DNA from: Eledone cirrhosa
Taxonomy: Eukaryota
DNA length: 64,000 nucleotides
Assembly (NCBI GenBank): GCA_964016885.1
Contig: OZ024743.1
Location: forward strand, 144,832,001 to 144,896,000
Direction: 5' to 3'
The translations under genes were made by a program, and so were the position numbers. The first letter of the stretch is position 1. Every line of letters begins with the position of its first letter. Shown one piece after another: positions 2,757 through 57,800 of this stretch. The notes below the pieces were generated by a model. The model was not told where the DNA came from and searched no databases. It was given only the letters and a program-made list of their open reading frames with translations.

Positions 2757-3191
2757 CTCTCTTTCTCACTCTCTCTCTCTCCCTAAACTTATATATACAC
2801 TCATATATCCTCTTAGTTTTGTACGGACAAATAAGAAACACACATACGCACGCGCGCACATACCAAACGATTTTTTTCCTTTGCAGCTAGACGCATTCGA
2901 TCACCGCCTTTTAAAACAAGATCAACTAATAGAACAATGCCAGAATCAACAGTTTTCTAAGAGATGGCGACTTGAATAGACCTGAATTTTTCTAATAAAT
3001 TTTTTTTTCGGTTCTGCTACTGCCCAAATTCCTCTAGCTTTCTATTTGATCTTTAAATTCTCATTTTATTTTCTGATGAGGGACAAGCGTCCGAAATATT
3101 AAGACCCCTTTTCTACCATATCAAGCGTAAAACTGATAATATATTTCTTCATTGTACTATATCGTTTGTTTTGTTATTTCTTTTTGCCTTT

Positions 3192-3715: not shown

Positions 3716-3818
3716 AGAAAAAAGAAAGAAATCAGCGTAAGGGTCACACTACTGTCAAGCTAGAAAACGCCGCGAAAAATGTTATTCTAAAGAATCTATA
3801 TTTTAACAAAGGCATATA

Positions 3819-4002
3819 ATAATTGTTTCTACTTTTTGGCACAAGGCCAGCAATTACACAGGGCATTACTGGTACTTTATTTTATCGACCCCGTAAGGAT
3901 GAAAGGCTAAGTCAACCTCAGCGGGATTTGAACTCAGATCGTTAAGGGACGTAACTATGCTGGAAAGCATGGCATCCGACCCTCTACTGATACTGCCAAT
4001 CC
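3819..4002 (-). mobile_element. tRNA-head SINE with Nin/Deu-like core, inserted in the inverted arm of family A
   Basis: Minus strand: A-box-like tggcagtatcagtagag, B box gagttcaaatccc, core gcctttcatccttacggggtcgataaa. Absent from the homologous site near 5925-5950. Confidence 0.88.
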
Positions 4003-4362
4003 ATAATGGGTGTCTGTATGGTCTAATGTGTGAACAGAAAATTGGAACGTTAAACTTAAAATATAGATTCTTTAGAATAACATTTTTCGCGACGTTTTCT
4101 AGCTTGACAGTAGTGTGACCCTTACGCTGACTTCTTTCTTTTTTCATCTTTTCTTTCTTTCTTCCCCTTTTTTATTCTTTGGCGGACAGGTGGTAGTACA
4201 TTATAAGCCTTCGCCCCCTCACCAGATGGTCATCAGCAGAACGAGTAGCCATCACTTTGAGGGCGACTGGCCGAGGTGAAAGGCAGCTAGTTGGCCAGGC
4301 GTCCTCTCTGTCTCTGATTTTTCGGACCCATGGTTTTTACATATTCCTTTGTTATATTTCGA

Positions 4363-6422: not shown

Positions 6423-6450
6423 ACATATATATATATATATATATATATAT

Positions 6451-7330
6451 AGGAACCAGTAAGACCCCGACAGCTGAGCTCAAGCCGTTTCGACGGCTAA
6501 TTCTGGACTAAATGAAAATTTATCCTGGTATTTAAATAGCCGATCTTCTCAAGGGGTAATTCCATATATGGTCAAAGTGATTGTCAAAAATCAGTAGTAA
6601 TTCTGTGGTTGCAAATTAGTAGGGGAGATGGTGGCTAAACCTGCCAGTAGGAGAAAGAGGGGAGGGGGTGGAGTAGACCCAATCAAGCGTTGGTAGTGCC
6701 AGCTACAGCTGGGCATGAGGTCAAAGAAGATACAGGGGAGGGGGAGGGGGAGGAAGTCGGAACGGTAGGTAGAACAATGGGGGGTAGAAATATATAGGAA
6801 AGAAAAAATACTGAGAGTGAAGAAAAGCAAATAAGTGTAAAGAAAAAAGTAAAGTAAATTAAATTCTACGACCTAGCTATTGTTAGGCTAGAATAAATAA
6901 ATAAATAAAGAAAGAAATAAGTAAAGAAAGAAATAAAGAAATAACGAAATAAGTAAAAGAACTAGGTGGGACGGAATAGGCAAGGACCCTTTTAAGAGGT
7001 ATAAGTACGTAAATGATACGGTGACGGGTCAACAAAAGGGGCCAAAATACTAAAGAGACTACCACGAAATAAGCAATAAAGGTTTCCATCCCGGGCACAA
7101 TGCCAGCAACCACCCAGTGCAGCAAAGTGAACTAGTACGAGATAATAATTCTGAGTCCCGAGAAAAATATATACTAATGCTAACTCTAAAAGATCTAAAA
7201 CAAGCTACAAGAAAGTTCGTACGAAGCAAAGGTAGAATACGGGAAAATAAATTCAGAATCCACCCCGCCCAAAAGAAAAGCGAGGAAAGAAATACTGAAA
7301 CGAAAAAATAAGGCATAAGTGCCACTAAGA
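6451..7330 (-). mobile_element. Non-coding pLTR/3' UTR segment of HHR family B
   Basis: Lies between (TA)n tracts. Its terminus is shared with the fold-backs at 7701, 16710, 29296 and 40457. Confidence 0.7.
6464..6557 (-). ncRNA. Hammerhead ribozyme, U3:A8 core variant, long stems II and III
   Basis: Minus strand: acccc TTGAGAA gatcggcta...tagccgtc GAAA cggct-tgagctc-agctg TC ggggt. Confidence 0.85.
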
Positions 7331-7332
7331 AA

Positions 7333-8844
<1,512 letters not shown>

Positions 8845-10420: not shown

Positions 10421-11249
10421 AAGAATGAGAAATTAAGAAGATTGAAGGGACAGATAGGGCGGAATCTGAAAAAATGTTTTTAGAGAAAAATAACAGGTCC
10501 ATTTATGTTGCTATCCCTTGGAAAACTGTTGATGCTGGCGTTTTGTGTGTGATATACTTAGAAAAGTGGATGGTGGAGCGCGTCTATCTAAAATAGAAAA
10601 TAAATTGTTTTACACATAGAGCTATACGTGTGTGCGCGCGCGCGCGTGTGTGAAGCAAGAGGATATTTGTGTGTATATGTAAGTAAAAGAGTGTGTGTGC
10701 TTGTAAGTACGAAGCTGTGAGCAAAAGTATGTTAATATATGGTAGTGTGTGTATGTGTGTGTGTGTGTGAACAGAGCTGTGAAGAGCAAAGTAGAGGTGT
10801 GTGTGCGTATTTTGTTGCTCTGTATCAGCAGCAAGAGTGTATGCTTCTGCCCATGAGAAAGCCATAGGAATCTAGGGGTGAATGTACAAGCGCGTGTGTG
10901 ACAACGACGAGGTAAACGTGACGGGGGGCACAAAGGGTAGAGAAGTAAGCACTAACGTAAATGTGTAATATTAAAAAAATTGAGGAGGGTAGTTAAGTTC
11001 ATCAGGGAAACAGGAACCGAGGCGGTAAATCAGACTATATATAATATATATATAGTAATAATAATAAAATTGAAGACTAAAATCCAAAGAGGGCTCGATA
11101 AGGAAAATATATATCAAATATATAAGAACCGTAGAGCAAATATTTATTAAAATAACAGATTAAAGTTTAAGCATAATCCGCGAAAAGCAGACAACAAACA
11201 GGATAAATTTGGATTTAAAACTTATAATAACCCTCCGTGGAACCCAGCA

Positions 11250-13172
11250 TTGCTACCCTTCGAAAATGATGTCTTGGAACTCATTCTGAATATCAAATTT
11301 CGGAATAGGAGCAATTCCTTCCAGCAAAACCTGAAGAATAGAATTCGTTCTATTAAGGATTCTAACGCCGTGCACGTCCATTCCGACAAAACTGGCAACC
11401 TATATCAAGTGGAGCGCAGTACTTACCATCAACTACTACATAATGCTGTAACTAAGGATTACCGTAAAACTAATCGGTGCGTCATCAATGAAATCAACGA
11501 TGCTGGGTTTAAAATCACATCTGATCTCAACATCCTGGACCGGACCGAACCTCTGGACCCTATCTCTCCCCACTTTACCATGAAGGATCACAAATCCAAT
11601 TTTTCGAACAACCCTTCTATTCGGCTTATTAACCCTACGAAGTCCGATTTAGGTAGGCTTAGTAAAACGATTCTTGATAGAATTATACCTGAAATTAGAA
11701 GTTTGGCCCCTCTCGCACTGTGGAACAATTCTTTCGCGGTGATTGATTGGTTCAACGGCATATGTAACAAGGAAGATTGCCGTTTTATCCAATTCGACAT
11801 CAACAATTACTACTCCTCCATCACTTTACCACTTCTCCTCAGAGCTATCAATTTCGCTAAAACACTCACAGTGGTTAAGGATTTTGAAGTTGATGTCATC
11901 CTTAAAGCCCGAAAGTCGGTGATTAATTTCGACGACTCTATTTGGATTAAAAAATCCAATAGTACCCCATTCGACGTGAGTATGGGCGCCAGTGACTCTG
12001 CGGAGGTTACTGATCTTATTGGCCTTTTCCTTCTTTTCTCTATCAAGGACGAATTCCCCAACGCGGGCGGTGGTTTGTACCGTGACGATGGTCTTTTGAC
12101 CATGACTAAGTGCGGACCTCGTGCTTGCGACAGGTTCAGAAAAGAACTCATAGCCTTCTTTAAAGGCTTCAACCTCTCTATACAGGTTGAGGCCAATCTC
12201 TCGGTCGTTAATTACCTCGACGTTACCCTCAATTTATTGAATGGGTTGTATTACCCGTATAGAAAGCCGAATGATACGCTTAATTACATAAGTAAGCATT
12301 CCAACCATCCTGCCAGCATAACCAAGAACCTGGTAAGAAACGTTTCGTTGAGGCTTTCCCGTCTTTCCACCAACGAGCGCATTTTCAACGGCCATTCCAC
12401 TTATTACAATGAAACTCTTGCTCGAAGTGGATTTGTCGATAAGGTAGCATATACAGTGTACGAAAATAGACCTAGAAGAAATAGATCTCGTCGCATTTGT
12501 TGGTTTAACCCACCATATAATATGGAGGTGGCCACACCATTAGCTAAGATCTTTCTTTCCCTTATTACGAAGCATTTTCCCCCTACACATAAATATAGTA
12601 ACATTTTTAATAGAAATACTATTAAAATTTCTTACTCTACGACTCCTAACCTTGCACATAACATCACAGCTTCAAATTTAGCTAAACTACCTAGCCGTAG
12701 GAACACGTGCAACCCTGTAGGTAGTACTAACTGTAATTGTAGGAATCGGGCTGATTGCCCCCTATCCGGGAAATGCCTCTCTAGTAACATTGTCTACAAA
12801 TGTAAGGTTGTAACACCCACGTCCCGTAGGGCCTACATACGGTTAACCGCCAATAGTTTCAAGCAGCGTCTTTACATGCATACCCATTCTTTTCGTTACC
12901 CTCTAAGAAGGAATATGACGTCACTTTCAGCTTATATCTGGAGTCTAAAAGACAACCACACCCAATATAAGTTACACTGGGAGATCCTAGCTAGGGCTAG
13001 ATCGTATAACGGAAATAAAAGACCATGTGACCTCTGCGCCGCTGAGGCCCTGGAAATACTCTACGCTACAGACCACATCTTAAACAAAAAATCTGAGGCA
13101 ATTTCGGCTTGTAAACATAAATTGCACAAAACTTTCCTGTATTACAGCCCCACGTTATACCCTAACGGATAG
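11250..13172 (+). CDS. PLE reverse transcriptase with C-terminal GIY-YIG endonuclease (N-terminally truncated; no ATG start)
   Basis: SDKTGNLY, IRLINPTKSDLG, QFDINNYYSSI, FDVSMGASDSAEVTDLIG, LYRDDGL, VNYLDVTLNL, SNHP, WFNPPY, CNCRNRADCPLSGKC, IVYKC..AYIRLT, CDLC, LNKKSE..CKH. PLE-like sequence continues in frame upstream to about 11175 (KFGFKT..PP). Confidence 0.93.
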   Translation: MLPFENDVLELILNIKFRNRSNSFQQNLKNRIRSIKDSNAVHVHSDKTGNLYQVERSTYHQLLHNAVTKDYRKTNRCVINEINDAGFKITSDLNILDRTEPLDPISPHFTMKDHKSNFSNNPSIRLINPTKSDLGRLSKTILDRIIPEIRSLAPLALWNNSFAVIDWFNGICNKEDCRFIQFDINNYYSSITLPLLLRAINFAKTLTVVKDFEVDVILKARKSVINFDDSIWIKKSNSTPFDVSMGASDSAEVTDLIGLFLLFSIKDEFPNAGGGLYRDDGLLTMTKCGPRACDRFRKELIAFFKGFNLSIQVEANLSVVNYLDVTLNLLNGLYYPYRKPNDTLNYISKHSNHPASITKNLVRNVSLRLSRLSTNERIFNGHSTYYNETLARSGFVDKVAYTVYENRPRRNRSRRICWFNPPYNMEVATPLAKIFLSLITKHFPPTHKYSNIFNRNTIKISYSTTPNLAHNITASNLAKLPSRRNTCNPVGSTNCNCRNRADCPLSGKCLSSNIVYKCKVVTPTSRRAYIRLTANSFKQRLYMHTHSFRYPLRRNMTSLSAYIWSLKDNHTQYKLHWEILARARSYNGNKRPCDLCAAEALEILYATDHILNKKSEAISACKHKLHKTFLYYSPTLYPNG

Positions 13173-14102: not shown

Positions 14103-14153
14103 AGTTTCAGAAGATCCCGTTAAGGGTGAAAGCAGCGATTCTTTGCTTAAACT
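14103..14153 (+). ncRNA. Variant hammerhead motif (core CAGAAGA, U4A)
   Basis: agttt CAGAAGA t-ccc-gttaa-ggg-t GAAA gca-gcgattctt-tgc TT aaact. Confidence 0.7.
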
Positions 14154-14423: not shown

Positions 14424-15259
14424 TTGGTAAAAGGAAAAGAAAATGCTGACAAATTGTTCCCAGTGAAAAATAATTTAATTAGGAATAAGTAAAAATTAGT
14501 AATTGTTTCTACTTTAGGCACAAGGCAGCAAATTACCCAGTGCATTACTGGTACTTTATTTTATCGACCCCGTAAGGATGAAAGGCAAAGTCTACCTCGG
14601 CGGGATTTGAACTCAGATCGTAAAGGGACGTAACTATGCTGGAAAGCATGGCGTCCGACCCTCTACCGATAAAATTAGTAATAAGTATTGGTTAGTATTC
14701 AGTTTTGGTTTTAAGTTTTTACCGGTTGCGCATTTCTAATGCTTTTCAAAAATAATTTTGAGATAGAGCGCCCGTGGTGTTTGCTCTAACACACACACAC
14801 ACACACACACACATATTTGTCTTAAAAGACTTATTTTTCAGTGACTTCTCAATCAGCCGAGACAAACCTACATTTGGCGCAAAATCAATTTTTAACATTC
14901 ACATGACCTCTACCGACCAATCAAAATTGTTTTGACCACAAGAATTTTTGCAACACGAATTGGCGCGAAACTTATTTTAATACATCTGGAGCCACTTTTT
15001 TCACATAAAACAGGTAGAATTTCCAAAACTAATCAGATTAGAGCAAACATCACGGGGGCTCTATCTCAAAATTATTTTTGAAAAGCATTAGAAATGCGCA
15101 ACCGGTAAAAACTTAAAACCAAAACTGAATACTAACCAATACTTATTACTAATTTTTACTTATTCCTAATTAAACTATTTTTCACTGGGAACAATTTGTC
15201 AGCATTTTCTTTTCCTTTTACTAATATATCATAACACGTGTGTTACACCTCTATTCTTT

Positions 15260-16709: not shown

Positions 16710-16713
<4 letters not shown>

Positions 16714-16912
16714 AACGAGTAGGACCCCGACGGCTGAGCTCAGGCCGTTTCGACGGCTAATTCTGGACTAAATCATAGTCCAGAATTAGCCGTCGAAACG
16801 GCCTGAGCTCAGCCGTCGGGGTCCTACTCGTTCCTATTACCCACTCTACTACCCTAAGTATTGAGTACTTTGGTGCGTTATGGTCCACCTGGTTCCTTAC
16901 CACATTTCTTCC

Positions 16913-16913
<1 letters not shown>
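16710..16913. repeat. Fold-back of family B pLTR
   Basis: Same two ends as 7701-7893 but a different apex. Confidence 0.9.
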
Positions 16914-17506
<593 letters not shown>

Positions 17507-17618: not shown

Positions 17619-18250
17619 GAAAAGAATGAAACGAAATTTCATTACTCACTCTTAGTACGGCTGATACTTAAATATAAGTATATAAGTATGTATACGTACA
17701 TGCATATATATGTATACAGACGTACAGTAGTATGTATATATATACATACATGCACACATATATATATGTACGTATGGATTTACCGAACATTTATTATAAT
17801 GTTCGGTTTGTTTGTAAACAAACAGCCCGAATTAAGCCGTACAGTGTTCGGCAACCATCGTTGCCCTTTTGTTCAACACTGACAAACGAACGATGAACTA
17901 GTTTCAAGCTTATTAGCTATCTTCAGCATCGTATACCTTCCTTCAGATGATTGAACGTTTGAAAGTATATACTTTCCTTATGTATATTAACGGCTGAGCA
18001 GCCTAATTTGCATATCGAGTGAGTTAGTCGGCCGGGCGTACCGAAAACGATAAATGGAAAAGAATGAAACGAAATTTCATTTCTCACTCTTAGTACGGCT
18101 GATACTTAACTGTAAGTATGTATACGTACATACATATATGTATACAGACGTACAGTAGTATGTATATACATACATACATGCACACATATATATATGTACG
18201 TATGGGTTTACCGAACATTTATTATAATGTTCGGCTTGTTTGGTAACATA
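17619..18250 (-). mobile_element. Retrozyme-like unit, 438-nt period (about 1.4 copies)
   Basis: gaaaagaatgaaacgaaatttcatt at 17619 and 18057; internal HHR. Relatives at 40668-41000 (+) and 56388-56630. Confidence 0.82.
17891..17931 (-). ncRNA. Hammerhead ribozyme motif
   Basis: Minus strand: cgatg CTGAAGA t-agct-aata-agct-t GAAA ctag TT catcg. Confidence 0.88.
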
Positions 18251-18450
18251 TATATATATACGACTGGTTGCTTCCGAACAACTGTTCAAATTACATTCAC
18301 TAGGCTATAGTAGATAGAAGACAAGTTGCGAAGCGAACCACTCAGCCATGCCTGCATATATTTGACGAAACAAGGCCCTACAATTTAGGGGCACGATTAT
18401 ATAAGAATGTGGGATACCAGTAAATGAAAGAAATTAGTAAAATAATATAA

Positions 18451-18612
18451 TAATTGTTTCTACTTTTGGCACAAGGCCAGCAATTATTCCAGTGCGTGAC
18501 TGGTACTTTATTTTATCGACCCCGTAAGGATGAAAGGCAAAATTAACCTCGGCGGGATTTGAACTCAGACCATTAAGGGCCGTTTAATCTTTGCTGTAAA
18601 GCATGGCGTCCG
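18451..18612 (-). mobile_element. SINE (5'-truncated)
   Basis: Same family core and 3' tail. Confidence 0.88.
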
Positions 18613-18629
18613 TAATATAATAATAATAT

Positions 18630-21535
18630 AGGTTTCTGCCAGGTGTTGCGACCGGGAAATAGTATCGGCATTTGTAAAAACAAATGGAAACATTGTTTTC
18701 TTGGTCCGATCTGGTGAGTTCCACCCAACTCGGTAAGCGTGTGAGGTCGGGGATCTTGTTTGTTCCAGGATGGATAGATGGATGGAATATAGAATTTTAA
18801 CTAAAATTTTAGAAAGGTTTTCATATAAATATATACTTTGCGATTTGCAGCTCTAATTGAAATACAAAGGGGGAAGTTTACATACAATAAAAACGTGTAA
18901 AATGTTATCACAAATGCAATTTAAAGAATTAGTCGATTTTCCCCAATAGAGGGAGACAGTTTATATGGGTAACACATACCCCCGAAAAAATGTGAAACCC
19001 TCATCTCCAGGAGTACGAAGAGTTTGTACTCCTTTCCTCTCCTCCTCCTTTTCCTCAACCTAGAGTCTGATATAGAGAGAAGGCCCATTCACTCGGGCCA
19101 TTCTCGCCACTTTCATCCACCTTTCATAAAACTTGCTGGGGTACAGCACCTCTCTATCCATCCTGATTCTTCTTCCAAAGTGGTATTTGAAAAAAAGAAT
19201 CAGTTGTTGGCCGGAGAGAAAGGTGTCTGACCTCAGCCCTTTCAACCTTGTCCACCATACAACCTCTTTCGCCATAGCTATCACACAAAGGAAAACCGCC
19301 TCTTCTTCGTTTTTGAAGGAGGGTGGCGGTTTGATCATGACAATGGACTCGGTGGTCAACCGGATTGGTCCCACCCGCGACAATAGTCGTTCTACATAGC
19401 GACAATAGTCGTTCTACATAGCCCCACAGGTCAGTGACGCCCGGGCAGTGTATGAATGCGTGCGCGACGGTTTCTTCGTTACGCACGCACCTCGGACAGA
19501 TCTTTTTTGCAGGATCCCTTCCCGGGCGCCCATGTCTGTAGAGCTTGTCTCGAACTGGTAGAGATCCTCGGTAGCACTGCCAGGCCAGGGACTTTTGGAA
19601 GTTGTCCATCGGTCCCGGGCGGAAGGTCCTACCGAACAGACTGGCCAGTTCATCTTCCTCTACGCCCAGAGTTTCACCGAGCGCGTCGTCGCACTTGCTG
19701 CGGATCAACCCTCTATAGAATGACGAAGTGGAGTCTCCACTGATCGCCGGGTCCACCTGCCAGAGGGCTGTGAGCGCCTAAGCACATTCGATGTGCCAGT
19801 CGCCCATTTTCCTCGGTCTTTGCTTGACCCAGGACTGCAGCTCAGTCAGCGAGACGAGTCGTGGGAAGGCTCGCCTCACGAACGGGGCCCACACCGGTTG
19901 TCCGGTGAGGAATACGTAGAGATGCCGCAGCCTGAGCGCGTGTTTGCGCATCGTCAGCCACGGCATCCCCAGCCCTCCGTTGGAAGGGTGTTGGCAGCAG
20001 ATGATCTTCTCACCACAGGAGCCCTCCTCTTCCAAAGGAATTGGAAGAGTGCGCGCTCCATTTTGGTGAGCGTTTTGGCTGGACAAGGCACGAAGGCCAA
20101 GCGGTAGTAGATGGCGGACGCTATAAAAGTGTTCGCCACCTCCGCTCGACCTTTCAAGGATAGTTTGCACTCGGCCCACTTCTGGGTGAGTGCAAACACC
20201 TTGGCCGACACCTCGTTCCAATTCTTCTCCACCTGGAGGTCCTGACCAAACCAGACCCAGAGCAGCTTTACTGGTCCTTCCGTCCAGCGTACGACGCCAT
20301 CGGAAGGCATCGGTTTGCTTCTCCACGATCCGAGTTGCAAACCGATGGACTTGTCCCGGTTCGGCTTCGCTCCTGTGAACCTTTCGTATTCCTTCAGTAA
20401 GGTGCCGACTTCCTCGATTTGCGAGGTGCTCGACACCATTACTGTCACGTCGTCGGCGTAGGCCGATGCAGCTTTCCGCAGTCCCGGTTCCAGAGGGAAG
20501 CCCTGCAATAGCTCCAACTTCCGCAGTAGTGGCTCGAGAGTCAGTACGTTCAGAAGGGAGGAGAGAGGGCATCCCTGTCGAATGGATCACGTGATATGGA
20601 ACGGCTCCGAGAGGTAGCCGTTCACCTTAACCCTTGAGCAGATGTTGCTGTTATGCATTGCAGCAATCGAGCCCCTGAATACGGGTCCGAAGCCTGCCGC
20701 CTCGAGCACCGCATTCAGGTAACAATGGTCAACCCTATCGAAAGCCTTAGACTGATCCAAGTTGATCAGGGCCCCCACCGAAGCCGGGTTTACACCCTAC
20801 CCTCTCTATGATGTATCGCATGAGGTGGAGGTTGTCGTGTATGGACCTGGTCGGGATTGCGCATGTCTGTGCTTCTCCCACCAGGTTCTCATCGACAAGC
20901 GCCAGCCTCTTTGCCAACACCTTGGCCAAAATCTGTAACTCTGTGTTTAGCAGAGTTATGGGCCGGAAGTTGCCTATGTCATCCCCCTTATTCTCGTCCT
21001 TCTTGACTAGTGTGACTACGCCCCCGGTCACAGAACTGGGAATTCTCCCGTTCTGCTGCCAGTTGCAGTAGACCGCTTCCAGAAGACCGGAGAATAAGTC
21101 CGGAATTGCTACGTAAAATTCGTAGGGTAGACCGTCGAGACCTGGAGATTTGCGTTTGTCGCATTGGCTCAGCGTGTCCCCTATCTCAGCGGCTGAAATT
21201 GGCTTTTCGCAGAACTTCGCCTCGCTGTCCGAGAGTCGAGGTATGGGCCGAAATCCATAGCCCCTCCCGGCGCATCGCCCTGCCCGAACAGTTGAGCATA
21301 GTGCCGCTGAAAGGCCGCACACATCTGCTTCGGCTCACGTATCACGCGTCCGTCTTGGTCCTTCAAAGACCGAATTGTGGACTTGGTGCCACTTTTTGCC
21401 TCCGTCACTCGGGCCCAGCTAACAGCTTTGGCTCCCTCGCTTCCCAGAGCACGTATTTTGCTTCTGACAACGCAGCCCTCGTGCTTTGCGTCGAAGAACT
21501 GGTCCAAGGCCGTTCTCGTTGCTAGCACGCTGGCT
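18630..21535 (-). mobile_element. 5'-truncated, frameshifted L1/Tx1-clade LINE (ORF2 RT and C-terminal zinc motif, 3' UTR)
   Basis: KSPGLDGLPYEFY, NFRPITLLNTE, LDQSKAFDRVDH, RQGCPLSPLL, AYADDVTV, GGLGMP, CPRC..EETVAHAFIHC. Coding ends near 19060; 3' boundary approximate. Confidence 0.93.
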
Positions 21536-25209: not shown

Positions 25210-27415
25210 CAGTATCTATGTATGGACATATGCATAAGTATGTGTTGCCATAGGAGTCGATCGAGGCATGGGTAGGGGTGGTGATTGTGTAGGGGGTGGT
25301 TTACCGTGGGCTCGGTGTGGCGGGGCTACTGTCCCTATAGCTTGAGGGAAGTTCCCATCCCAATGTGTTGTTATTGTCCATATAGCGTGAGGAAGGTCCC
25401 TTCCCTGAGGTGTCTACATGTCCCGAAGAAGTCAGTCCTGAGGTTTATTAGGCTGCTTCCACCGCTGAGTATCACAAGGGTCTCGCTCAGACATAGTTTG
25501 CAGATGCCAGATCCCCCTTTATCATTTGGTACTTTCCTGATTTTGGACCAGGCCAGAGACTACGGGCTCCTGTCCAGCTTGAGCTTCCAGATCAGTTCGG
25601 AAAGAGCCGTATTTTTTCTTTTGTCCTCTCTATTAAAGGAATGGCGATGGTTGTACCATCGGTCTTTAAAGCTCGTTGATGTGGCTTCTATGTAAAGGTG
25701 TTCAGAGTTGGGTGTTTTTACTCTACATCCGTATATTAAGTTCTTCCTTAGGCATTCATTACTAAGGGGGCATAATGCGGAGTTTCTGAAGTTGCAGGAG
25801 GTGGTCGACCCTCGAGTGCCTAGTGTGGAGTTGCCGTTGCGTATTATATGGTGGTCCTCGCCCGGGTCCGGTAGGTGGTCCCTGCGTCTGTTTGGGTTTC
25901 CAGGATGGGTACTGGGTCCACCCTTCCTTCCCTCCACATGGTTCTGCTGGGTGCTTATATTGCCAGCTTCTGGTAGTGTGTGGTTTTTAAGTTTACCCCT
26001 ATTGATGCTAGCTATGTGCTGGGCCACATTTCGCGTGGTAGAATACGAGAGCTTCACAGTGTGTCTTTTGAAGATCTTGTGGTATCTATGGTCCCTCGGG
26101 AAGCATTTATCTAGTGCTCTAAAGAATGAACGGGCCATGCTGTTCTTTAGGGCCGCTGAGTAGGGTGGATTGTACCACGTGATGTTTCTGCGTCTACTCC
26201 TATGTGGGTGGGTTGAGCGTGCCGTGGGCTGTTGGGGAGTTGTTGGGTTGCTAGTGGTTCCCGCATTGCTGCTTCTGCTTTGGGCGCTATGTGTTTTGCT
26301 AACTTCCCGGCCCATATCTGTGGAGTGGTTGTTGCCCACGCTGGGAGTTCTACAATGGGATGGTCCTCCATCAGTCCCGCTTCGTGTCTTGCGGTTGGGG
26401 GCGTCGGGCCCGGGGTGGTTAGTATCACCCCTGAGGCCGCTACTCGTACTGGGTTTCCTCCCATGGTTATGCGTACGCGTCTTCTTCTCTAATGTGGTGG
26501 TGTCGGGTTCATGGTGTTTAGTTGTTTCCACTCTGCCTGTACTGTTAGGGTCACCTCCCTCCCGGATACCGTGGGTCGGGGTATCCGATGGGCTATCCCT
26601 ATCATGGCGCCTCGGATTATATGATATATTTTGGCCATGCGCCGCCTTATTTAGAGCTGCGTTGTAATATTCTGCGTTGCTATCGAAGATCTTCTTATTG
26701 GCAGACAGGCTGGAGATCCTGTCCGAGACACTCTTCACTGTGGTTTGACTTGGCGTTAACATATACCAGTTTCTCGTTGGGATTGTGATAGGGGTAGTAT
26801 TGCTCGGTGTTCAGGTTTAGGGTGGTGTGTAGGAAGTTAACCACCTTTCTATTTGGGTCTAGCTCGATACTGAGCCCATGGTTCTTAAAGAAATGCCTAA
26901 TTTTCCTCTTCATTCTCTCCACCATAGTGGTGCTGTGGTCATAGACTGTGAAGAGAGCATCGTCACGATACAATCCGCCGCCCAGGCAGGGGATTTCTTC
27001 TTTTATCTGCTTCAGCAGGAAGATCCCAACCAGGTCCGTTACCTGTGCGTAGTCGCTGGGCCCATCATGATGTCAAAATTATTTGGCCAATCACTCATGG
27101 TCCAAAGGTTTCCACCAAAACGGATCAAGGTCTTTCGGGCGGCGTGGATGATGCCCACCTCCCAGAGGGTTAGGTCCGTTTGTTCGAATTCATATGATTC
27201 CAGTTCCTCAGAGAAATAACAACCCAACCAGGAGCTGGACATATCGGAGTATTGACGGAGTAAAACACTTCAACAACATGTGTACCTGTCTCTACCACAC
27301 CAATTCGGACTGCCTGAAGAGGTCACAGCCAATGATGGCTGTCACCGATATATATATAGCAGTACATCTTTAATAAACGAAGCCAAATTTTAAATATTTG
27401 ACTTAATTATTTTAA
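25210..27415 (-). mobile_element. Decayed GC-rich Hydra-clade-like PLE with inverted pLTR at the truncated 5' end
   Basis: LYRDDALF, VVNFLHTTLNL, RRRNITWYNPPYS, SCNFRNSALCPLSNEC, LIYGC..LYIEAT, ALSELIWKLK. RT motif A remnant near 27250-27280, then an opposite-strand HHR. Confidence 0.9.
27309..27363 (+). ncRNA. Hammerhead motif with GAAA changed to GATA
   Basis: actgc CTGAAGA ggt-c-acagcc-aatgat-ggctgt-c-acc GATA tatata TA gcagt. Confidence 0.75.
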
Positions 27416-29295: not shown

Positions 29296-29468
29296 AAACG
29301 AAGGAAGTGTGGTAAGGAACCAGATGGACCATAACGCACCAGAGTACTCAATACTTAGGGTAGTAGAGTGGGTAATAGGAAAATGTTTAACCCCGACGGC
29401 ATATTTCTGGTCCAGAAATAGCCGTCGAAACTGCTTCAGCTCTGCCGTCGGGGTTAAACATTTTCATA
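29296..29468. repeat. Fold-back of family B pLTR (subfamily variant)
   Basis: Tail, then aaaatgtttaaccccgacggca ... tgccgtcggggttaaacatttt. Confidence 0.85.
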
Positions 29469-32853: not shown

Positions 32854-32900
32854 CTGATTTTGACAAGTCCCAGGATGGGGGTGAAACGTTCGTAAATCAG
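32854..32900 (+). ncRNA. Hammerhead motif, U3:A8 variant
   Basis: ctgatt TTGACAA gtccc-aggatg-ggggt GAAA cgttcg TA aatcag. Confidence 0.8.
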
Positions 32901-35531: not shown

Positions 35532-35879
35532 GTGAGGTTTTTTTACAAAATGAAAAATAACCGAGGTGTCCTACACGAGTGAAAGTGTAAAGAAAAAAAG
35601 ATGAAATCGAAAATGCAACTGGAGTCTTATTTAAAAAAATATATATATATATTTATTTGGTTCCTTTACCGATTTCGCAGTTCTGCTTTTCAAAAGTAGA
35701 GTTGAGATGGAGGGTCTGTGGTTTTTCTCACACCAGATGTGAGAAAAACCACAGACTCTCCATTTCAACTCTACTTTTGAAAAGCAGAAGAACTGCGAAA
35801 CCGGTAAAGGAACCAAATAAATATATATATTTTTTTTAAAAATAAGACTCCAGTTGCATTTTCGATTTCATCTTTTTTT

Positions 35880-40456: not shown

Positions 40457-40459
<3 letters not shown>

Positions 40460-40600
40460 AAAAAGTATGACCCCGACGGCAGAGCTCAAGACGTTTCGAC
40501 AGCTATTTCTGGAATTTTTCCTATTTCCCACTCTACTACCGTAAGTATTGAGTACTCTGGTGCGTTATGATCCATCTGGTTCCTTACCACAATTCCTTTG

Positions 40601-40602
<2 letters not shown>
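40457..40602. repeat. Short fold-back of family B pLTR
   Basis: Same TAGGAA end and same tail. Confidence 0.8.
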
Positions 40603-41535: not shown

Positions 41536-41570
41536 ATTATCTCTCTCTCTCTCTATATATATGTATGTAT

Positions 41571-41651
<81 letters not shown>

Positions 41652-41673
41652 TATATATATATATATATATATG

Positions 41674-44600
41674 TAGGAGGTGAGTTTTATTGTAGTACAA
41701 TAAAGCAATGCAGATATCGGATAAGAAGCACTCTACAGTTTGTGGGACTGGAGTATGCATAATATAAAATCAAAAGATGGTTAAAGGAGTTCCATATATT
41801 TTATTATGCGCATTTCAAAAACAAACATCATCAAGCAATAATATTGTGTTTTCATCAGATAAAACAGGAGAACATGATATGAAGGCTAAAAAACACTTGT
41901 TGATAGTGCAGTTTTAAATCAACATATGAAAAGTGTGTTTAGATTGATGTGTGATATTGGGAAAAATATTTTATTTAGAGAGGGGGTGGGGGGGAGGATG
42001 AAAAGGAAGGAGATGAGAGGGAGAGATGGGTGATAGAGAGAAAAAGATAGTTTTTATAACTGAGATAGAGATATTTTTAACATAGAGGGGTTGAAAACCG
42101 TTGGAAGATACTGTATAAATTAAAATTTTGAAAATTAACGAAGGGAGGATATGTGCGAGGAAAAAATATTTTATTTAGGGAGGGGGTGGGGTGGAAAGGA
42201 TGAAAAAAAGGGGGGAGGAGATGAGAGTGAAGGTGGAGAGGGAGAGATGGGTGATTAGAGAGAAAGAGATAGTTTTTATAACTGAGAAAAAGATATTTGT
42301 TTTAATATAGAGAGGTTGGGAACCGTTGGAAGATAATGTATAAATTAAAGGATTTGAAATTAACGAAGGGAAATATGTATGAAGATAGAGAGAAAAAAAT
42401 AATATTGTGGGTGAATATTCTAACGTCAAAAGAAGAAATGTATGTATTGTGGCAATTTCAAAATTTAGCGAAGAGAAAAAATTGTTAAGGTTTGTGTGTA
42501 GAAGGATTTGAGAAAAATAATGTGAAGTTAAAGTTTGTATATTGAATTGATATGTATTAATAATGAGTTCGTTGATGGGGAGAAAAAAATAATAATAAAT
42601 TAAGGATGAAATTGAGATTAAAAAGATTTATGATAGAGAGAAAAAATAATAATGATTGCGGATGAATATTCAAAATGTCAAAAACAAATGTTATTATTTT
42701 ACGAGAAGATAGAATGAGGGTAATGAGTAAACGAGTATTATAGAGTGTATAATGCCCTTTAAAGTAAGGTAGATGGGTATATTTTAAAGAGGTGTATGTA
42801 TATGTGCCTTTGAGAAAAGATTCTAAATTGATAAAGAATTGAATATTAACTGTATACTTTTGAAAAGTTCTATGGAATTTATGCAGGCAGATAGAAAACA
42901 AATCTGAGCGTCTATTTATTATAGAATCTAGGTTAGAGATAATGGTAAATTTTTCATTTTAGGCAGAGATTACAGATTTTAGATAGAGAGCTGTTCAAGT
43001 ATGAGGATGCAGAAGAAATCTTTTTCCAAAAAGTGATGTTATATTTAATGTTTTTTGTCTTTTAAGGACCTTATGAGTTCTGAGAGAGCAGTGTTAGTTC
43101 TTTTAAGTTTGTATTTGAAAGATGAATGATGATTATAGAGACGAGCTTTAAAAGAGGTGGAAGTGGAGCCAAAATAGGTGAAGGAATTGGTGCTAGTTAT
43201 AATTTTACATTCATAAATTAAGTTTTTATCGAGGCAATGGGTTGTTGAGAGGACATTTATTTTAATGCGGCAGTTGCAATTAGAGAGATTATTAATGAGT
43301 GATCTAGTGTTATCTATAGAAGGAATTGGATTGGAGAAGTGTTTGCGATAGGAATAATAGGAATAATAGTTCTTGATTTAGAGTTGGATTATGAACATTT
43401 AGCGAAGTTGTGTTTGACGTTGTATTTGGGTTACAGAAGTTAGCCTAGGGTTTACAATGACGTCGGGAGTACTATTACTGTTATTATGAAATTCAATATT
43501 GGAAGGAAGAGATTTAGTATTTAATATTTTGTTGTTGTGTTTAGAGATGATGTTGGAAATATTGGAGGATGTAGAATACGAAAATTTGATGGTGTCTTTG
43601 TTAAATATTTTACTATAGATATGTGAGGGAGGGAAGCATTTATTTAAGGCACTAAAAAATAATTAGGAATATTGTTATTAATAGAGATGGAGAAAGGAGC
43701 ATTATACCAGATTATGTTTTTGTATCTAGGTCTTTTATTAAAATTATTGAATGGTCATGATTAATTATTCTACTGTAAGTTTTCCTAGAATTTGTTTCTT
43801 TATTATATTTGATTTTATCTGGATAGCCGGCTTTAGAAAGTGCGTTATTATAGTAATTGGCGTTAGCATCAAAGATGTTTTTATTAGAAGATATGTTAGA
43901 TATTCTATTTCCAATATTATTAACTATAGCATTAAAAATATATGTCCTCTCAACAACCATTGCCTCGATAAAACTTAATTTATGAATGTAAAATTATAAC
44001 TAGCACCAATTCTTCACCTATTTTGGCTCCACTTCCACCTCTTTTAAAGCTCGTCTCTATAATCATCATTCATCTTTCAAATACAAACTTAAAAGAACTA
44101 ACACTGCTCTCTCAGAACTCATATGGTCCTTAAAAGACAAAAACATTAAATATAACATCTTTTGGAAAAAGATTTCTTCTGCATCCTCATACTTGAACAG
44201 CTCTCTATCTAAAATCTGTAATCTCTGCCTAAATAAAAAATTTACCATTATCTCTAACCTAGATTCTATAATAAATAGACGCTCAGATTTGTTTTCTATC
44301 TGCCTGCATAAATTCCATAGAACTTTTCACAAAGTATACAGTTAATATTCAATTCTTTATCAATTTAGAAATCTTTCTCAAAGGCACATATACATACACC
44401 TCTTTAAAATATACCCATCTACCTTACTTTAAAGGGCATTATACACTCTATAATACTCGTTTACTCATTACCTCATTCTATCTTCTCGTAAAATAATAAC
44501 ATTTGTTTTTGACATTTTGAATATTCATCCGCAATCATTATTATTTTTTCTCTCTATCATAAATCTTTTAATCTCAATTTCATCCTTAATTTATTATTAT

Positions 44601-45425
44601 TTTTTTCTCCCCATCAACGAACTCATTATTAATACATATCAATTCAATATACAAACTTAACTTCACATTATTTTCTCAAATCCTTCTACACACAAACCTT
44701 AACAATTTTTCTCTTCGCTAATTTGAAATTGCCACAATACATACATTTCTTCTTTTGACATTAGAATATTCACCCACAATTATTATTTTTTTCTCTCTAT
44801 CTTCATACATAATTTCCCTTCGTTAATTTTCAAATTCCTTTAATTTATACATTATCTTCCAACGGTTCCCAACCTCTCTATATTAAAACAATATATCTTT
44901 TTCTCAGTTATAAAAACTATCTCTTTCTCTCTATCACCCATCTCTCCCTCTCCACCTTCACTCTCATCTCCTCCCCCCTTTTTTTCATCCTTTCCACCCC
45001 CCCCTCCCTAAATAAAATATTTTTTCCTCGCACATATCCTCCCTTCGTTAATTTTCAAAATTTTTAATTTATACAGTATCTTCCAACGGTTTTCAACCCC
45101 TCTATGTAAAAAATATATCTCTTCTCAGTTATAAAAACTATCTCTTTCTCCTCTATCACCCATCTCTCCCTCTCATCTCCTTCCCTTTTCATCCTCCCCC
45201 CCCTCTCTAAATAAAATATTTTTTCCCAATATCACACATCAATCTAAAACCACTTTTCATATGTTGATTTAAAACTGCACTATCAACAAGTGTTTTTTAG
45301 CCTTCATATCATGTTCTCCTGTTTTATCTGATGAAAACACAAATATTATTGCTTGATGATGTTTGTTTTGAAATGCGCATAATAAAATATATGGAACTCC
45401 TTTAACCATCTTTTGATCTTATATT
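41674..45425 (-). mobile_element. AT-rich decayed Hydra-clade-like PLE with an inverted duplicate of about 1.47 kb (EN, 3' UTR, pLTR)
   Basis: Minus strand: NRISNISSNKNIFD..YYNNALSKAGY, IWYNAPFS, CNCR, LIYECKI..YFGSTSTSFKARLYNH, CNLC. About 41762-43255 is inverted at about 43944-45425. Confidence 0.9.
45322..45387 (+). ncRNA. Hammerhead motif (mirror copy at 41799-41864, minus)
   Basis: ttttat CTGATGA aaac...gtttt GAAA tgcgca TA ataaaa; palindromic ATGCGCAT. Confidence 0.83.
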
Positions 45426-45471
45426 ATATATATATATATAATATATATATTTGTATGTATATATATATATG

Positions 45472-45503
<32 letters not shown>

Positions 45504-45561
45504 TGTATGTATGTATATATATGTATATATATATGTATGTATATATATATATATATGTATG

Positions 45562-45628
<67 letters not shown>

Positions 45629-46929: not shown

Positions 46930-47352
46930 CGATTTCTAATTTAGGCACAATGCCAGTAATTTGTGAGGGAGGGGAAAGTCGATTAAATCGGTCCCAGTAC
47001 GTTACTGTTGCTTTATTTTATCGACCCCGTAAGGATTAAAAGCAAAGTTAACTTCGGCGAGATTTGAACTCAGAACGTAAAGGGCGGTAACTCTATGCCA
47101 CAAAGCATGTTGTTCGGCACCCAACCGATACTGACAATCCACCGCCCTTTTCGCTTGTATAATAATTGTTTCTACTTTTGGCACAAGGCCAGCAATTACC
47201 CAGTGCATTACTGGTACTTTATTTTATCGACCCCGTAAGGATGAAAGGCAAAGTTAACCTCTGCGGGATTTGAACTCAGAATGGCAAGGGCCGTAACTCT
47301 ATGCGTCAAAGCATGGCGTCCGACTCTCTACCGATACTGCCAATCCACCGCT
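46930..47352 (-). mobile_element. Two adjacent SINE copies (long and short 3' variants)
   Basis: SINE core occurs twice; cgcttgtataataat flanks the second copy. Confidence 0.88.
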
Positions 47353-51660: not shown

Positions 51661-52639
51661 TTATGGTTTCTTAATATTGATATCTAATTTGTAGAGCGGT
51701 GGATTTACAGAATAGTTATATTGTCAAACAAAATGCCTTGCAATATGAAGCTCCGACTCTTTAGTTTCTGAGTTCAATTCTCGCCGAAGTCAACTTCACC
51801 CTTTTGGAGTCAATAACATAAAAAAATAGTTAAGTACTAGTTCAATTTAATCGACTATATCAACCCCAATATTTGTGTCTATGTTAATAATAGATGTTTT
51901 TTCTAAGCTAGATATCAATATTGATTTATAATTAAAACATAAGGTCATACTGAGAAAAGAATAATCTTAATTTAATCGATTTCAGCATTTGATTTAATTT
52001 AGAATAAGTACTGGGTCTGATTCAATCGATCCAATCACCCCTCCCCGCAAAACGCGTAATTTGTACTACAATTTTAGAAACCAACACGGCAGTGAAAGGA
52101 GTCGATCGTTTAAAGTTACTAAAAATTTATGTTGAATATAAAAAGAACGGTGGGACTATTTAGCTAACACAAGCTTTCAGAATGAAAGAAAACTTTAACG
52201 CCGTGAATCTTTGTTGATATATAGCGTCACTGATATATTACAGAGTAAATGAAGTATGTACGTGGAAAATGTAAGACTGCGTATATATTTCAAATATTAG
52301 AGGAAGCAGACCTGAATTACAAGAAGACACAAGACAAACATTTTGTAAAAATGCAGAACTGCCAACCTCTAAAAACTCAAACGGGGGAGTACCATGAAAA
52401 ATATTGCCCCATAATGGGGATAAATGAGGTAAAATGGGGAGATTTACATAATGAAAGCTATACCCATTTTCACAAAAACAGGGAGACGGGAGAAATGAGT
52501 CAAAATGGGGAGTTAACAGGTCTGAAGATGCAGGAGAATCATTTTGTAGAACAGGAATATGCGTGAAGGCAACGATTCGTGCATAAACATGCGAGTATAT
52601 ACCTTAGTCAATATAATTAAATTGCATTAATAAATAAAG

Positions 52640-53066
52640 AGGGCAGTGGATTGGCAGTATCGGTAGAGGGTCGGCCGCCATGCTTTGCAACATGGAGTAA
52701 CGGCCCTTTACGATCTGAGTTCAAATCCCGCGAATGTTGACTATGCCTTTAATCCTGACGGGGTCGATAAAATAAAGTAGCAGTCACACACTGGGGTCGA
52801 CTTAATCGACTTTCCCCTCACCCAAAATTGCTGGCCTTGTGCCTAAATAAGAAACCATTAATAAATAAAGAGGGCGGTGGATTGGAAGTATCGGTAGAGG
52901 GTCGACCGCCATGCTTTGCAGCATGGAGTTACGGCCCTTTACGTTCTGAGTTCAAATCCCGCAAAGGTTAACTTTGCCTTTCATCCTTACGGGGTCGATA
53001 AAATAAAGCACCAGTAATGTACTGGCATAATTGCTGGCCTTGTGCCAAAAGTAGAAACAATTAATA
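52640..53066 (+). mobile_element. Tandem SINE pair
   Basis: Two full heads (tggcagtatcggtagag...gagttcaaatccc); ttaataaata at all three junctions. Confidence 0.9.
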
Positions 53067-54099
53067 AATATGTAGTAATCGACAAATTCAACTTTCAATT
53101 AAAAGCAGTAGGCGTGCCAGCTTCTCACCATTGAAACAATATACAAACGTCTAGTAATGCTTTCATAAGTGTGCTAAGTCCCTGCATTAGTGTGAATATT
53201 TGAAAAATGCAATCTTCACTAGATTCAAGTGAAAGGCTGTTTGCATGCACGTGTACTTTTGAAACAAAATTGAAAGATAGTTGAAGTGTACTATTTTAAT
53301 TCACCAGATTTTTGATAGGCAAATGTGTAGAATAAAACAAGTGTAATCAGAAAAATAACTATGACATGTTCGACGAGAAAGTGTATTTTCAGAGGAAAAA
53401 TCTTTCAGACCAGGAAGAAGTGGGAGCATTGAAAAAGTAATTGTTGATGTTACACTGCTCTGGTGAAAAATATCGGACTGGTTATAGAAGGTAGTTGATT
53501 AAGTGTAAACAAGGAAGACTAATTACGTAGACATCAAAATATCTTGTCATATTCTTTAATTACTCTTAATTAACGAAAGCATTAATCAACTTTAATAGAT
53601 AAGAAAGTACATCATCTACCTACTGTTAATGCTTTTGCAAAAACTGTAGCATTCATATGAACGTATGAAGCTAAATTCGTTTTGGAAAGCTAGATAACTA
53701 ATGATTATCATGCTTTTCTTATCAGCAAATTTGATTGCTTTGAGATAGAATGACGATTCGCAGCCAAAGTAACCTGCAAAACTAAACACGGCGTGAACTA
53801 TTCTATAAACAGATCTGTAAAAGAGCGATAGGATGTATAACAGTAATTTTCGGGCTTCAGTTTTTGTTGAAAAGAGATGCGCAGGAAATGCTAAATTGAC
53901 ACATAAAGTATAAATTAGGAATTGCTATAAACATAGCAATGCTATTTATGTGCTTATATAAATGTCCATGCAGTGTATGCAGAAAAAAAAAATGCTAAAA
54001 TTTCAATCGTCATAAAGAATTAACTCAAAGAAAATCAATACATAAATGTCAAGTAAATATGATCTCAAAATAAAAATAATATCGTGGGAAATAAATTAA

Positions 54100-56352
54100 A
54101 AAAAAAACTTTCTCTGAAATATTTCATGTGTAAAGTTGATGGTGCTGCTGTGTTGTAAGGGGAATGTAGTGATTGGCTATTTTCAAAGCTGAAAGCGTTG
54201 GATGTGAAATAGACCGCAGGCAGACGAGACGGTGTTGGCTTAGAGAAGACTCTCGATCCTCTTACAGATTGAACTGCATTTGATGCAGTCACATTTCGTT
54301 GGTAACCTGTATACTGGGTGAAAGTGAAACCATTGTCAACCCAGATGACCAGAACTGACTCGAGTTTCAACCATACGTCAGTTTCCGATGATTTATGGAG
54401 AATCTCGTGGATGAAGGCGCAGCTGAGGGTGAAAGATGAAAAGTAGACTGACAGTGTCATGTCAGATATTGACAAAGGTTAAGGTCACCGAACCTCACGA
54501 GGAGTTTTGTTTGTTGTCAGGCTGTGTCGTCGAAATTGACATTGCAAGTGAATTCGTTGTAACGTTGAATGTTGGCGCCAATTTCACGGAGGTATCCCGC
54601 GTGGGGATGACATGGCATACTGCGTAGCGAAAAGAGAAGTTTGGAGAGAGTGAAGTATTTCTTCGGGAGCGGGGAGCGTGTGATGCGATTCAATGAGGGG
54701 CATTCTGTCCGTCATCCTTGCAAGGTTAACACGTTTGTCCTCTAGGAATTCTCGCATTATTTTCAAGAGAATTGGAGAGCCAAGAATGTAGGCATTGTCC
54801 TTCGTCAGAACAGACTGAATGATGTGTACAGTGTAATCATATTGAGTTTCGTCATATTTATTACCTCTGACTTGGACGAGTTAATTTAAATACTGATAGG
54901 GTTGGGATAATGTTCTGAATGTCAACACCGAGTGACTCAACAAAGCTATCTAGTGTCGAATCATCCGGGTACCAGACATTGAATTATAAACTGTTTGAGC
55001 TGACAATGTCGTCGGCTCCCAACGCCAAGACGAGAAGACCGAATAAGTTAATTTGCTGGACACCTCTGGTGAATATAATGTTACTGTCAGTAAAGATGAA
55101 CATACTGGGTGTCCTGTAAGAGAATTGTGCCAGGAGTATAGAAGGGTCCTGTCTCCGGCACATCTCTAGGATCTGATCTCGCCTAACGCTATTAAATGTG
55201 TTTCGCGCGTCCAACTTTACCCGGAGGTGAGGTGACGATGGGAGTGCTTGCCTAATAGAATGCATGAGAAGCTGCCTCACACTCGCATTTAACTCGTACT
55301 CCGAGTTGAAAAAGGTACAGTTCCTTGCTGAGTTTCTCCACAACAGACTTGCAGGGTATCCTGGTCGCAAGTCGCTGAAAGATGTTATGCACTGCGATAG
55401 ACCGGATACCTCCAGCATTTTTTTCAACACTGCTAGGCTGGCTAAGATGAAAAGATCGCAGCCAAGACAGGAAAATCGCGGAAGGCTTCCTTAGTAGTAA
55501 TCAACCGAAGCAGATGTACTCCGACCTCAGTGGAGTGTGGCGGATTTAGGTCACTGGGCTAGCTGCTCACTACATGGGAAGGATACAAATATACATGACG
55601 GGTAGATATCTGGATGTCTTTGATATCTGGATGATTCAAACGGAAAGTAGTTAAGACTTCTGGTGTAGATCAGAAGACCGTGTCGTTCGAAACCAGCACA
55701 TACAACGTGACAGAAACGTTACTTTTAATTAATTTTCAATTGATTCCATTGCAAAAATGTTTTGCATCATCTCAAGGATAAAGAGTGTCGAGTGTCGGTG
55801 CAGTCGGGTTGCTGGAAAAAACAAGCTTGTTGAAGATGGGTGGAAGAAGGAAGCAAGGGAGGAGACCGAGTCCTTCTTATCCATCGCGTCTTTGTGTTGA
55901 GTGTCGATCCGTTCTCTGTTCAATGTTTGATACTCTGACGACGCGACACTGGGGTCACTCGTTGACTACATCCAGAACAGCATCCCAACTCCTTATTAAC
56001 AAGAAAGAGAATATCAGGAAGGTCTGGTGGTCATAGAGAAAATACGACAAATGACTACATATATAAATATATGTAGTCAACCCCCAAAACTCTTTCCGAA
56101 CTATATAGGGAACACTTGTGATTATTTATGCCCTTGAGAAGCCCAACTGGGCGAAACGTACGTAGGTGATATTTTAAATAAACATGATTTAACGGTCTAT
56201 TCTCCGAATTTTTACTTTCCCACGTGCTTACGCTCTGCTACGAATATTTAATACTGCCGGCATTAGTATCGAGCACCTTTGGCATACGCTACTTGGCAAA
56301 TAACTATATGTATCACCTATCCCTCCTTTTTCTCTCTTTCTCGATACGTAAA

Positions 56353-57637: not shown

Positions 57638-57800
57638 GTCGGACGCCATGCTTTCCAGCATAGTTACGTCCCTTTACGATCTGAGTTCAAATCCCGCCGA
57701 GGTTGACTTTGCCTTTCATCCTTACGTGGTCGATAAAATAAAGTACCAGTAATGCACTGGGTAATTGCTGGCCTTGTGCCTAAAGTAGAAACAATTATTA
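57638..57800 (+). mobile_element. SINE (5'-truncated)
   Basis: Nearly identical to 14502-14670. Confidence 0.9.

Follow-up and report, generated by a model that had tools for sequence, protein, structure and literature searches.

The locus

The window, by which we mean the whole stretch of DNA analysed (64,000 nt), is eukaryotic DNA rich in repeats, probably from an invertebrate animal, with a GC content of 25-51% and many TA, CA and TG runs, and it holds more than 30 hammerhead-like copies, none of which was found by Rfam. One of these, at 6464-6557, reads on the minus strand as a complete type I hammerhead motif with a U3:A8 core; where motifs are compared it is labelled 6552, after its core start. 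Its parts, its host fragment and the sister insertions of its family are as follows.

6553-6557/6464-6468, minus strand: stem I, 5 bp
6546-6552, minus strand (running from 6552 to 6546): core UUGAGAA
6537-6545/6492-6499, minus strand: stem II, 8 bp with one bulge and a 37-nt loop
6488-6491, minus strand: GAAA box
6483-6488/6470-6475, minus strand: stem III, 6 bp, one of them G.U
6469, minus strand: C17 (GUC site), with the cut predicted between 6469 and 6468
6558-6563 pairing with 6452-6457, minus strand: predicted extension of stem I in the short-flank fold, 6 bp beyond a 6-nt bulge (span 6452-6563)
6452-7334, minus strand: fragment holding the motif, between two TA runs, without Penelope-like element (PLE) coding similarity
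7703-7894: sister insertion with inverted arms, only the 3' half of the hammerhead, and an 80-nt tail on one arm
16712-16914: sister insertion of the same layout, 3' half only
29296-29466: diverged sister insertion, 3' half only
40458-40601: diverged sister insertion, 3' half only, one arm collapsed

The 6464 motif has no substitution at the nine invariant positions, C17 is present, and U3 and A8 allow a Watson-Crick pair between positions 3 and 8. Its predicted MFE structure is the hammerhead fold itself, with three helices and open at stem I; for the motif alone the stem I pairs have predicted probabilities of 0.70-0.97 and the whole hammerhead fold 0.31. Adding 30/20 nt of flank left the constrained fold at a probability of 0.33, whereas 100 nt of upstream sequence lowered it to 0.19 and 200 nt to 0.004; the folding energy was not unusual against shuffles (z -0.96). 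The 6-nt bulge of the extended stem I is a candidate for a tertiary contact between loop I and loop II. Rfam models at E<=10 gave no match over 6440-6640 and missed the C3G8 motifs as well, so that these models are insensitive to this class.

The host fragment at 6452-7334 is likely a 3' UTR/pLTR. In all four sister insertions the arms are inverted or collapsed, an 80-nt tail is present on one side, and TA runs flank the whole; because they keep only the 3' half, U3:A8 is seen once in the 6464 family. The family arm ends at a TA run, and across seven arms the bulge varies and the flanks are mostly conserved. In these arms five of the stem III pairs are largely preserved and the central palindromic loop bases of stem-loop III are invariant, with no two-sided change found in stem III. 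The six pairs of stem III given in a preliminary description of this DNA are present in the 6464 motif, although the sixth is kept in only 3 of the 7 arms. The four sisters (7703-7894, 16712-16914, 29296-29466 and 40458-40601) all end within hammerhead loop II, a common endpoint that suggests a truncation hot spot or a mini-element. Opposite the fragment lies an open frame of 85 codons (7054-7308, plus strand) with no Pfam match.

Other U3:A8 motifs in the window

The preliminary description cited this motif and five others by their 7-mers, and all six are present, the 6464 motif on the minus strand, which had not been stated. The other five cores start at 56134, 32860, 35777, 15078 and 8297, all on the plus strand, and four U3:A8 copies beyond those cited were found at 35693, 14749, 8066 and 60445.

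56132-56166, plus strand: minimal U3:A8 hammerhead 56134, perfect palindromic stem/loop III, GUA site, only 2 contiguous bp in stem I
32854-32900, plus strand: minimal U3:A8 hammerhead 32860, stem I of 6 bp, G.U at the base of stem II (10.1-11.1), GUA site
35774-35809, plus strand: minimal U3:A8 hammerhead 35777, stem I of 3 bp, 6-nt palindrome at III (dimer type), GUA site
35664-35696, minus strand: inverted-arm partner of 35777 (35693), U3:A8
15075-15110, plus strand: U3:A8 motif 15078, GCAA for GAAA (A13C), predicted inactive
14717-14752, minus strand: inverted-arm partner of 15078 (14749), same A13C
60442-60477, plus strand: copy 60445 of the 35777 family, U3:A8, G12C and a broken stem II
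8294-8329, plus strand: degenerate U3:A8 motif 8297, core intact, stem I of 1 bp, stems I and II barely formed
8034-8069, minus strand: inverted-arm partner of 8297 (8066), U3:A8

The cited motifs had all been taken as hammerhead cores. This holds for 6464 and for 32860, 35777 and 56134 (three of the five remaining cited motifs), in which every invariant core base is present, but not for 15078, with its broken GAAA box, nor for 8297, which barely forms its stems and whose folding was no better than that of any of 200 shuffles. Copies 15078 and 60445 lack an intact GAAA box (A13C and G12C, respectively) and 8297 and 8066 lack a stem I of at least 2 bp; these are filed as decayed copies. Upstream of the 15078 and 60445 motifs are GGCGC-centred boxes and a CCAAT box (14873, 14917, 14960 and 60205), which may resemble E2F and NF-Y promoter sites.

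Carrier elements

Inverted 5'-truncated arms, a one-sided tail and TA targets make up the PLE layout (10.1101/2021.04.23.441226), and two start sites of reverse transcription account for the one-sided tail (PMC11167929). The arm-and-tail architecture was seen in the inverted pairs 8066/8297, 14749/15078 and 35693/35777 and in the 6464 sisters, and was not evident for 56134 and 32860. A TA run lies 42-326 nt from the core in all ten U3:A8 copies, in a window where TA runs are frequent. From this architecture we infer a PLE origin for the U3:A8 motifs; their membership of the Hydra clade is a guess.

Profile and tblastn searches of the window placed PLE coding sequence only at 0.4-2.4, 9.8-10.4, 11.1-13.2, 25.4-27.3, 33.7-34.9 and 42.9-44.3 kb, with no such similarity beside any U3:A8 motif, the copies being short and truncated. 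Pfam found no PLE domain adjoining the U3:A8 motifs, nor even one in the Hydra-like ORF. Every ORF-linked hammerhead in the window is C3G8. Of 8,000 candidates scored against the ORF at 11151-13172 (plus strand), 1,678 were relatives at E<=1e-10, and the ORF carries the DKT motif and a CxCx5C linker (CNCRNRADC), which together define the Hydra clade (10.1101/2021.04.23.441226). Fifteen Hydra-like loci of other hosts were taken from public genome records; nine have strong motifs and all 18 of these motifs are C3G8, many of them being repeats of one family and six of the loci coming from one assembly.

An alternative to truncated autonomous PLEs is that the motifs sit in non-autonomous retrozyme-like or MITE-like mini-elements mobilised by PLE proteins. 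Such an origin would suit the lack of any ORF linked to the U3:A8 motifs and the single layout of the four 6464 sisters, truncated near the same point, and animal retrozymes have been argued to derive from PLE pLTRs (10.64898/2026.07.22.740005). The motif units, however, form no tandem arrays, and no head-to-tail units of 200-400 bp with hammerheads (the criterion for non-LTR retrozymes) were found in the window; an inverted arm with a tail is, moreover, the usual product of PLE truncation (10.1101/2021.04.23.441226). We regard mini-elements as rather unlikely.

Several further elements were noted in the same DNA. The ORF at 11151-13172, from a 5'-truncated Hydra-like PLE, runs for 673 codons with no stop; its inverted arm lies at 11140-11173 and its hammerhead, at 14108, is C3G8 (U4A, 5-bp stem III). 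A large inverted pair of Hydra-like PLE pieces spans 41554-45615, with matching C3G8 hammerheads at 41858 (minus) and 45328 (plus), and a Hydra-like remnant at 25401-27263 (minus) has an inverted C3G8 hammerhead with A14U at 27314 (plus). A minimal C3G8 family at 3073 (plus), 9300, 10416 and 33596 (minus), with an extra base after A9 and a 4-nt palindrome, lies beside GIY-YIG-type PLE remnants. The C3G8 family of 3486, 4367, 6287, 8962, 29715 and 31921, which adjoins the 6464 element, includes three near-identical, and so recent, copies. More C3G8 families are found at 17926/40741/33241, 17119/17156, 32279/32593 and 46101/46434, several as inverted pairs. The fifteen contigs encoding Hydra-like PLEs (L001-L015), nine of them with hammerheads, come from bacterial genome records and probably represent DNA of the host that contaminates assemblies of symbionts or metagenomes. 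LINE-type remnants with Pfam matches to zf-RVT, RVT_1 and endonuclease lie at 19154-21322 (minus) and 62873-63998 (plus). A SINE-like repeat is present in many copies (3814-4003, 14496-14671, 18445-18612, 47158-47351, 52637-53070 and 57638-57801) and presumably resembles a cephalopod repeat.

Scan with positions 3 and 8 free

The window was scanned with a hammerhead grammar in which positions 3 and 8 were free, with 1,861 local dinucleotide shuffles of the window as the null; the score cut-offs were picked after the real matches were known. At a score of at least 20 the 64-kb window contained 10 motifs, 6 C3G8 and 4 U3A8, with none in the other 14 classes, against 0.27 matches per shuffled window in all classes (maximum 3) and 0.031 for U3A8. 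At least 12 gave 14 real matches (6 CG, 5 UA and 3 other), where the shuffles averaged 1.21, and at least 23 gave 9 in the real window. C3G8 or U3A8 made up 13.8% of the shuffle matches, compared to 10/10 of the real ones, and after copies were collapsed all seven groups were paired Y3:R8 (P about 1e-6). Restricted to U3 cores, the test is weak, with A8 in 3/3 lineages (P=0.04).

Since AT-rich DNA often contains TTGAAAA and GAAA, the motifs might be random matches, as would suit 8297, without structural support, and a fifth U3A8 match at 42828, whose score of 19.2 is within the null range. Four U3A8 matches where 0.031 were expected refute this for 6552, 32860, 56134 and 35777, and as an account of the motifs in general we consider chance very improbable.

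A count of core classes among genomic copies had been proposed as a check. It was carried out on the 32 copies readable at both positions and gave 22 C3G8, 10 U3A8 and no mismatched cores. The list is curated, not blind: the grammar misses weak-stem copies (the 6287 family, 17926/40741 and 33241), which were added via other scans, by eye and by homology. In a table of 30 copies, which excludes 46434 and 31921 (both C3G8) and 29715 (a 3-nt core deletion), nine substitutions at the nine invariant positions lead to an expectation of 2.0 at positions 3 and 8, with none observed; the probability of zero is 0.14, and copy-level counting was rejected as a test for its low power. Copies decay after insertion, and therefore the mismatch test belongs on family consensuses. 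No C3G8/U3A8 pair within one family was found in the window, and so the covariation lies between families and not within one. Rfam gave no match in the window at the gathering threshold, the C3G8 hammerheads being missed as well, and at E<=10 no hammerhead family was among the best 150 of 189 matches.

That only paired Y3:R8 cores occur among the strong motifs agrees with selection having acted on the ribozyme fold of the source elements, in line with the earlier proposal of selection for catalysis. The motifs could also be relics, inactive or nearly so, in which the double change drifted in AT-rich elements that no longer needed a ribozyme. Five of the ten copies are indeed broken, in the core (15078/14749, A13C; 60445, G12C) or in the stems (8297/8066), the rescue by U:A was low in one context (PMC9901934), and Naiad PLEs do well without hammerheads (10.1101/2021.04.23.441226). 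Drift, however, would leave U3G8 or C3A8 families, of which there are none at a score of at least 20, and 6552, 32860, 35777 and 56134 retain all nine invariant bases as well as their stems. Loss of function of this kind is, in our estimate, distinctly unlikely.

Lineages of the U3:A8 motifs

The motifs had been described as at least four apparently unrelated families. This is overstated: the sequences resolve into three or four lineages, with origins that may not be independent. Motifs 35777, 60445 and 15078 are homologues, with p values of 5e-10 and 2e-7 for their upstream flanks. Motif 8297 compares with these three at p about 0.003 on flanks only, not significant after correction for 120 pairs, and 56134 and 32860 reach a z of about 5 in alignments that take in stems and loops but are not among the top flank-only pairs. 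No flank similarity to other U3:A8 motifs was found for 6552, with a best p of 0.04-0.05 among 120-136 pairs. An apparent relationship of 6552 to the Hydra motif 14108 (z 3-4.5) did not survive inspection.

A single origin, in which U3:A8 arose once in an ancestral PLE lineage and the families are its diverged descendants, would turn recurrence into inheritance. The homology of 35777, 60445 and 15078, the weak links for 8297 and for the 56134/32860 pair, a z of 3.6-5.1 between 8066 and 32860, and the GUA site common to 9/10 U3:A8 copies all point this way. In the other direction, 6552 has no flank similarity to the rest and differs from them in stem II, stem III and cleavage triplet, and the U3:A8 families of schistosomes look unrelated (PMC4209133). 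We see a single origin as possible, at somewhat less than even odds; it is compatible with our preferred reading below and lowers only the claim of independent recurrence.

Monomer or dimer, and position 17

It had been suggested that 6464 may act as a monomer. Closure of stem III alone is predicted to be impossible for 35777 and 15078, to cost 3.5-4.6 kcal/mol for 56134 and 32860, and to cost nothing for 6464, whose MFE structure is also the hammerhead. The stem-loop III of 6464 is, however, near-palindromic, which leaves dimers possible: its 19-nt segment is predicted at -26.3 kcal/mol as a homoduplex, before the concentration cost, against -9.8 for two hairpins. Action as a monomer is thus plausible for 6464, allowed by the predicted energies and not exclusive. 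A long stem III is not unique to this motif, as the C3G8 motif 14108 also has one of 5 bp.

Position 17 is A in 9/10 U3:A8 copies, 6464 alone having C17. A U3:A17 pair would extend stem I, with a predicted probability of 0.65-0.96 in all seven testable copies. It is like the C3:G17 trap of G17 hammerheads (PMC3884650) in that position 3 pairs with 17 and lengthens stem I, and unlike it in its small predicted energy, -0.7 to -1.1 kcal/mol at each junction in 4/4 modelled dimers; because it is far weaker than that trap, its effect on cleavage is likely to be of few-fold size. A17 is not enriched in U3A8 compared to C3G8 copies (9/10 vs 13/20, p=0.21) and, being common in C3G8 copies too, is probably ancestral background rather than a selected partner. 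We found no paper on U3-A17 pairing in the part of the literature searched. One could imagine that U3:A8 arising on A17 brought a built-in U3:A17 brake that damps cleavage, and that the C17 lineage of 6464 evolved a long stem III and an extended stem I for cutting as a monomer. We think this unlikely; if it were true, the length of stem III would evolve jointly with core position 3 and with position 17, tuning cleavage in retroelements. The U3:A17 combination is a small, cheap and testable lead.

Discussion

The pair between positions 3 and 8 in the active hammerhead fold is established (PMC3884650). Perreault et al (2011) reported that C3:G8 covaries to U3:A8 in several natural hammerheads and called the change compensatory, citing earlier work in which U3:A8 was active in vitro (PMC3088659), and the preliminary description was right to treat it so. 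Full pairwise mutagenesis of one type III hammerhead gave a narrower result, as only a G:C swap rescued the 3:8 pair in that study (PMC9901934); in a PLE, C3G/G8C partly restored cleavage (PMC11167929).

Our preferred reading, to which we assign a probability of about 0.8, is that the motifs are type I hammerheads whose core is U3:A8, likely in PLE terminal repeats; their source elements would have kept the predicted self-cleaving fold, and the genomic copies likely decay. It starts from observed cores, stems, paired positions 3 and 8, inverted arms and TA neighbours, and self-cleavage enters it as a prediction. Pieces of Hydra-like PLE coding sequence in the window, whose C3G8 hammerheads are of similar style, also speak for it. 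U:A would replace C:G at 3:8 with an activity that depends on context, and the double change would have become established in between one and four master lineages, from which retrotransposition spread it. The short palindromic motifs 35777, 56134 and 32860 may cleave as domain-swapped dimers in tandem transcripts, and 6464 may fold alone yet keep a palindrome compatible with dimers. The parent element probably belonged to a TA-targeting clade such as Hydra. Several points count against this reading: the U3:A8 motifs are unjoined to PLE coding sequence, the motifs of Hydra-like loci are C3G8 in 18/18 cases, the rescue in PMC9901934 was by G:C only, 6464 has a z of -0.96 and a fold probability that drops with upstream context, the U3-only test is weak, the covariation lies between families, and PLE insertion in vitro went ahead without hammerhead cleavage (PMC11167929).

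The U3:A8 swap is real and had been correctly read, but it is not novel, having been reported in 2011 (PMC3088659) and in PLEs in 2014 (PMC4209133). The instances here are new ones, in another genome, of a variant already described in the same element class. Their value as a discovery is small, since the literature already covers the variant, its occurrence in PLEs and the failure of CUGANGA searches to pick it up. The canonical CUGANGA descriptor does miss 4/10 strong motifs, as had been foreseen (and as was published in PMC4209133), and the practical lesson is to scan with YUGANRA, without which these would be lost. The motifs of the window also form a natural panel on whether PLE hammerheads face catalytic selection, hammerhead cleavage being dispensable for PLE insertion in vitro (PMC11167929).

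Comparison with known systems

The closest system is that of the Cercyon PLEs of Schistosoma mansoni. Cervera and de la Pena (2014) described a U3-A8 variant in schistosome PLEs, with about 1,300 copies that fell outside their descriptor (PMC4209133). As in the window, these are type I motifs with U3:A8 cores (UUGAAAA and UUGAUAA in Fig. S3), and their copies are dispersed, heterogeneous, missed by the first descriptor, and arranged in opposite-strand pairs 100-700 bp apart. The motifs here differ in mostly lacking an extra base after A9, in a palindromic insert at helix III and in mostly GUA sites; position 17 is U or G in the two schistosome examples, and one family there is linked to a PLE ORF, a linkage absent here. 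The same source describes metazoan minimal hammerheads as weakly active and dimer-dependent, and lists a hemichordate motif reading U3 with G8. The variants of Perreault et al (PMC3088659) show the same covariation, rare there and found in 4/10 strong motifs of one 64-kb window here.

Hydra-clade PLE hammerheads (Craig et al 2021; loci L005-L015) resemble the U3:A8 motifs in their insertion at TA runs, the lack of an extra base after A9, their inverted arms, a near-palindromic stem III of 3-4 bp and GUA/GUC sites. They differ in that the strong motifs of the fetched loci, like the ORF-linked ones in the window, are C3G8 throughout, and in the longer stem III (5-6 bp) and the 37-nt loop II of 6464. 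With its long stem III, 6464 resembles the long-helix-III PLE hammerheads of fungi and protists, in which a large helix III permits a stable monomer (PMC4209133), but it lies in an animal-type repeat, has a U3:A8 core, and its stem-loop III is a near-perfect palindrome.
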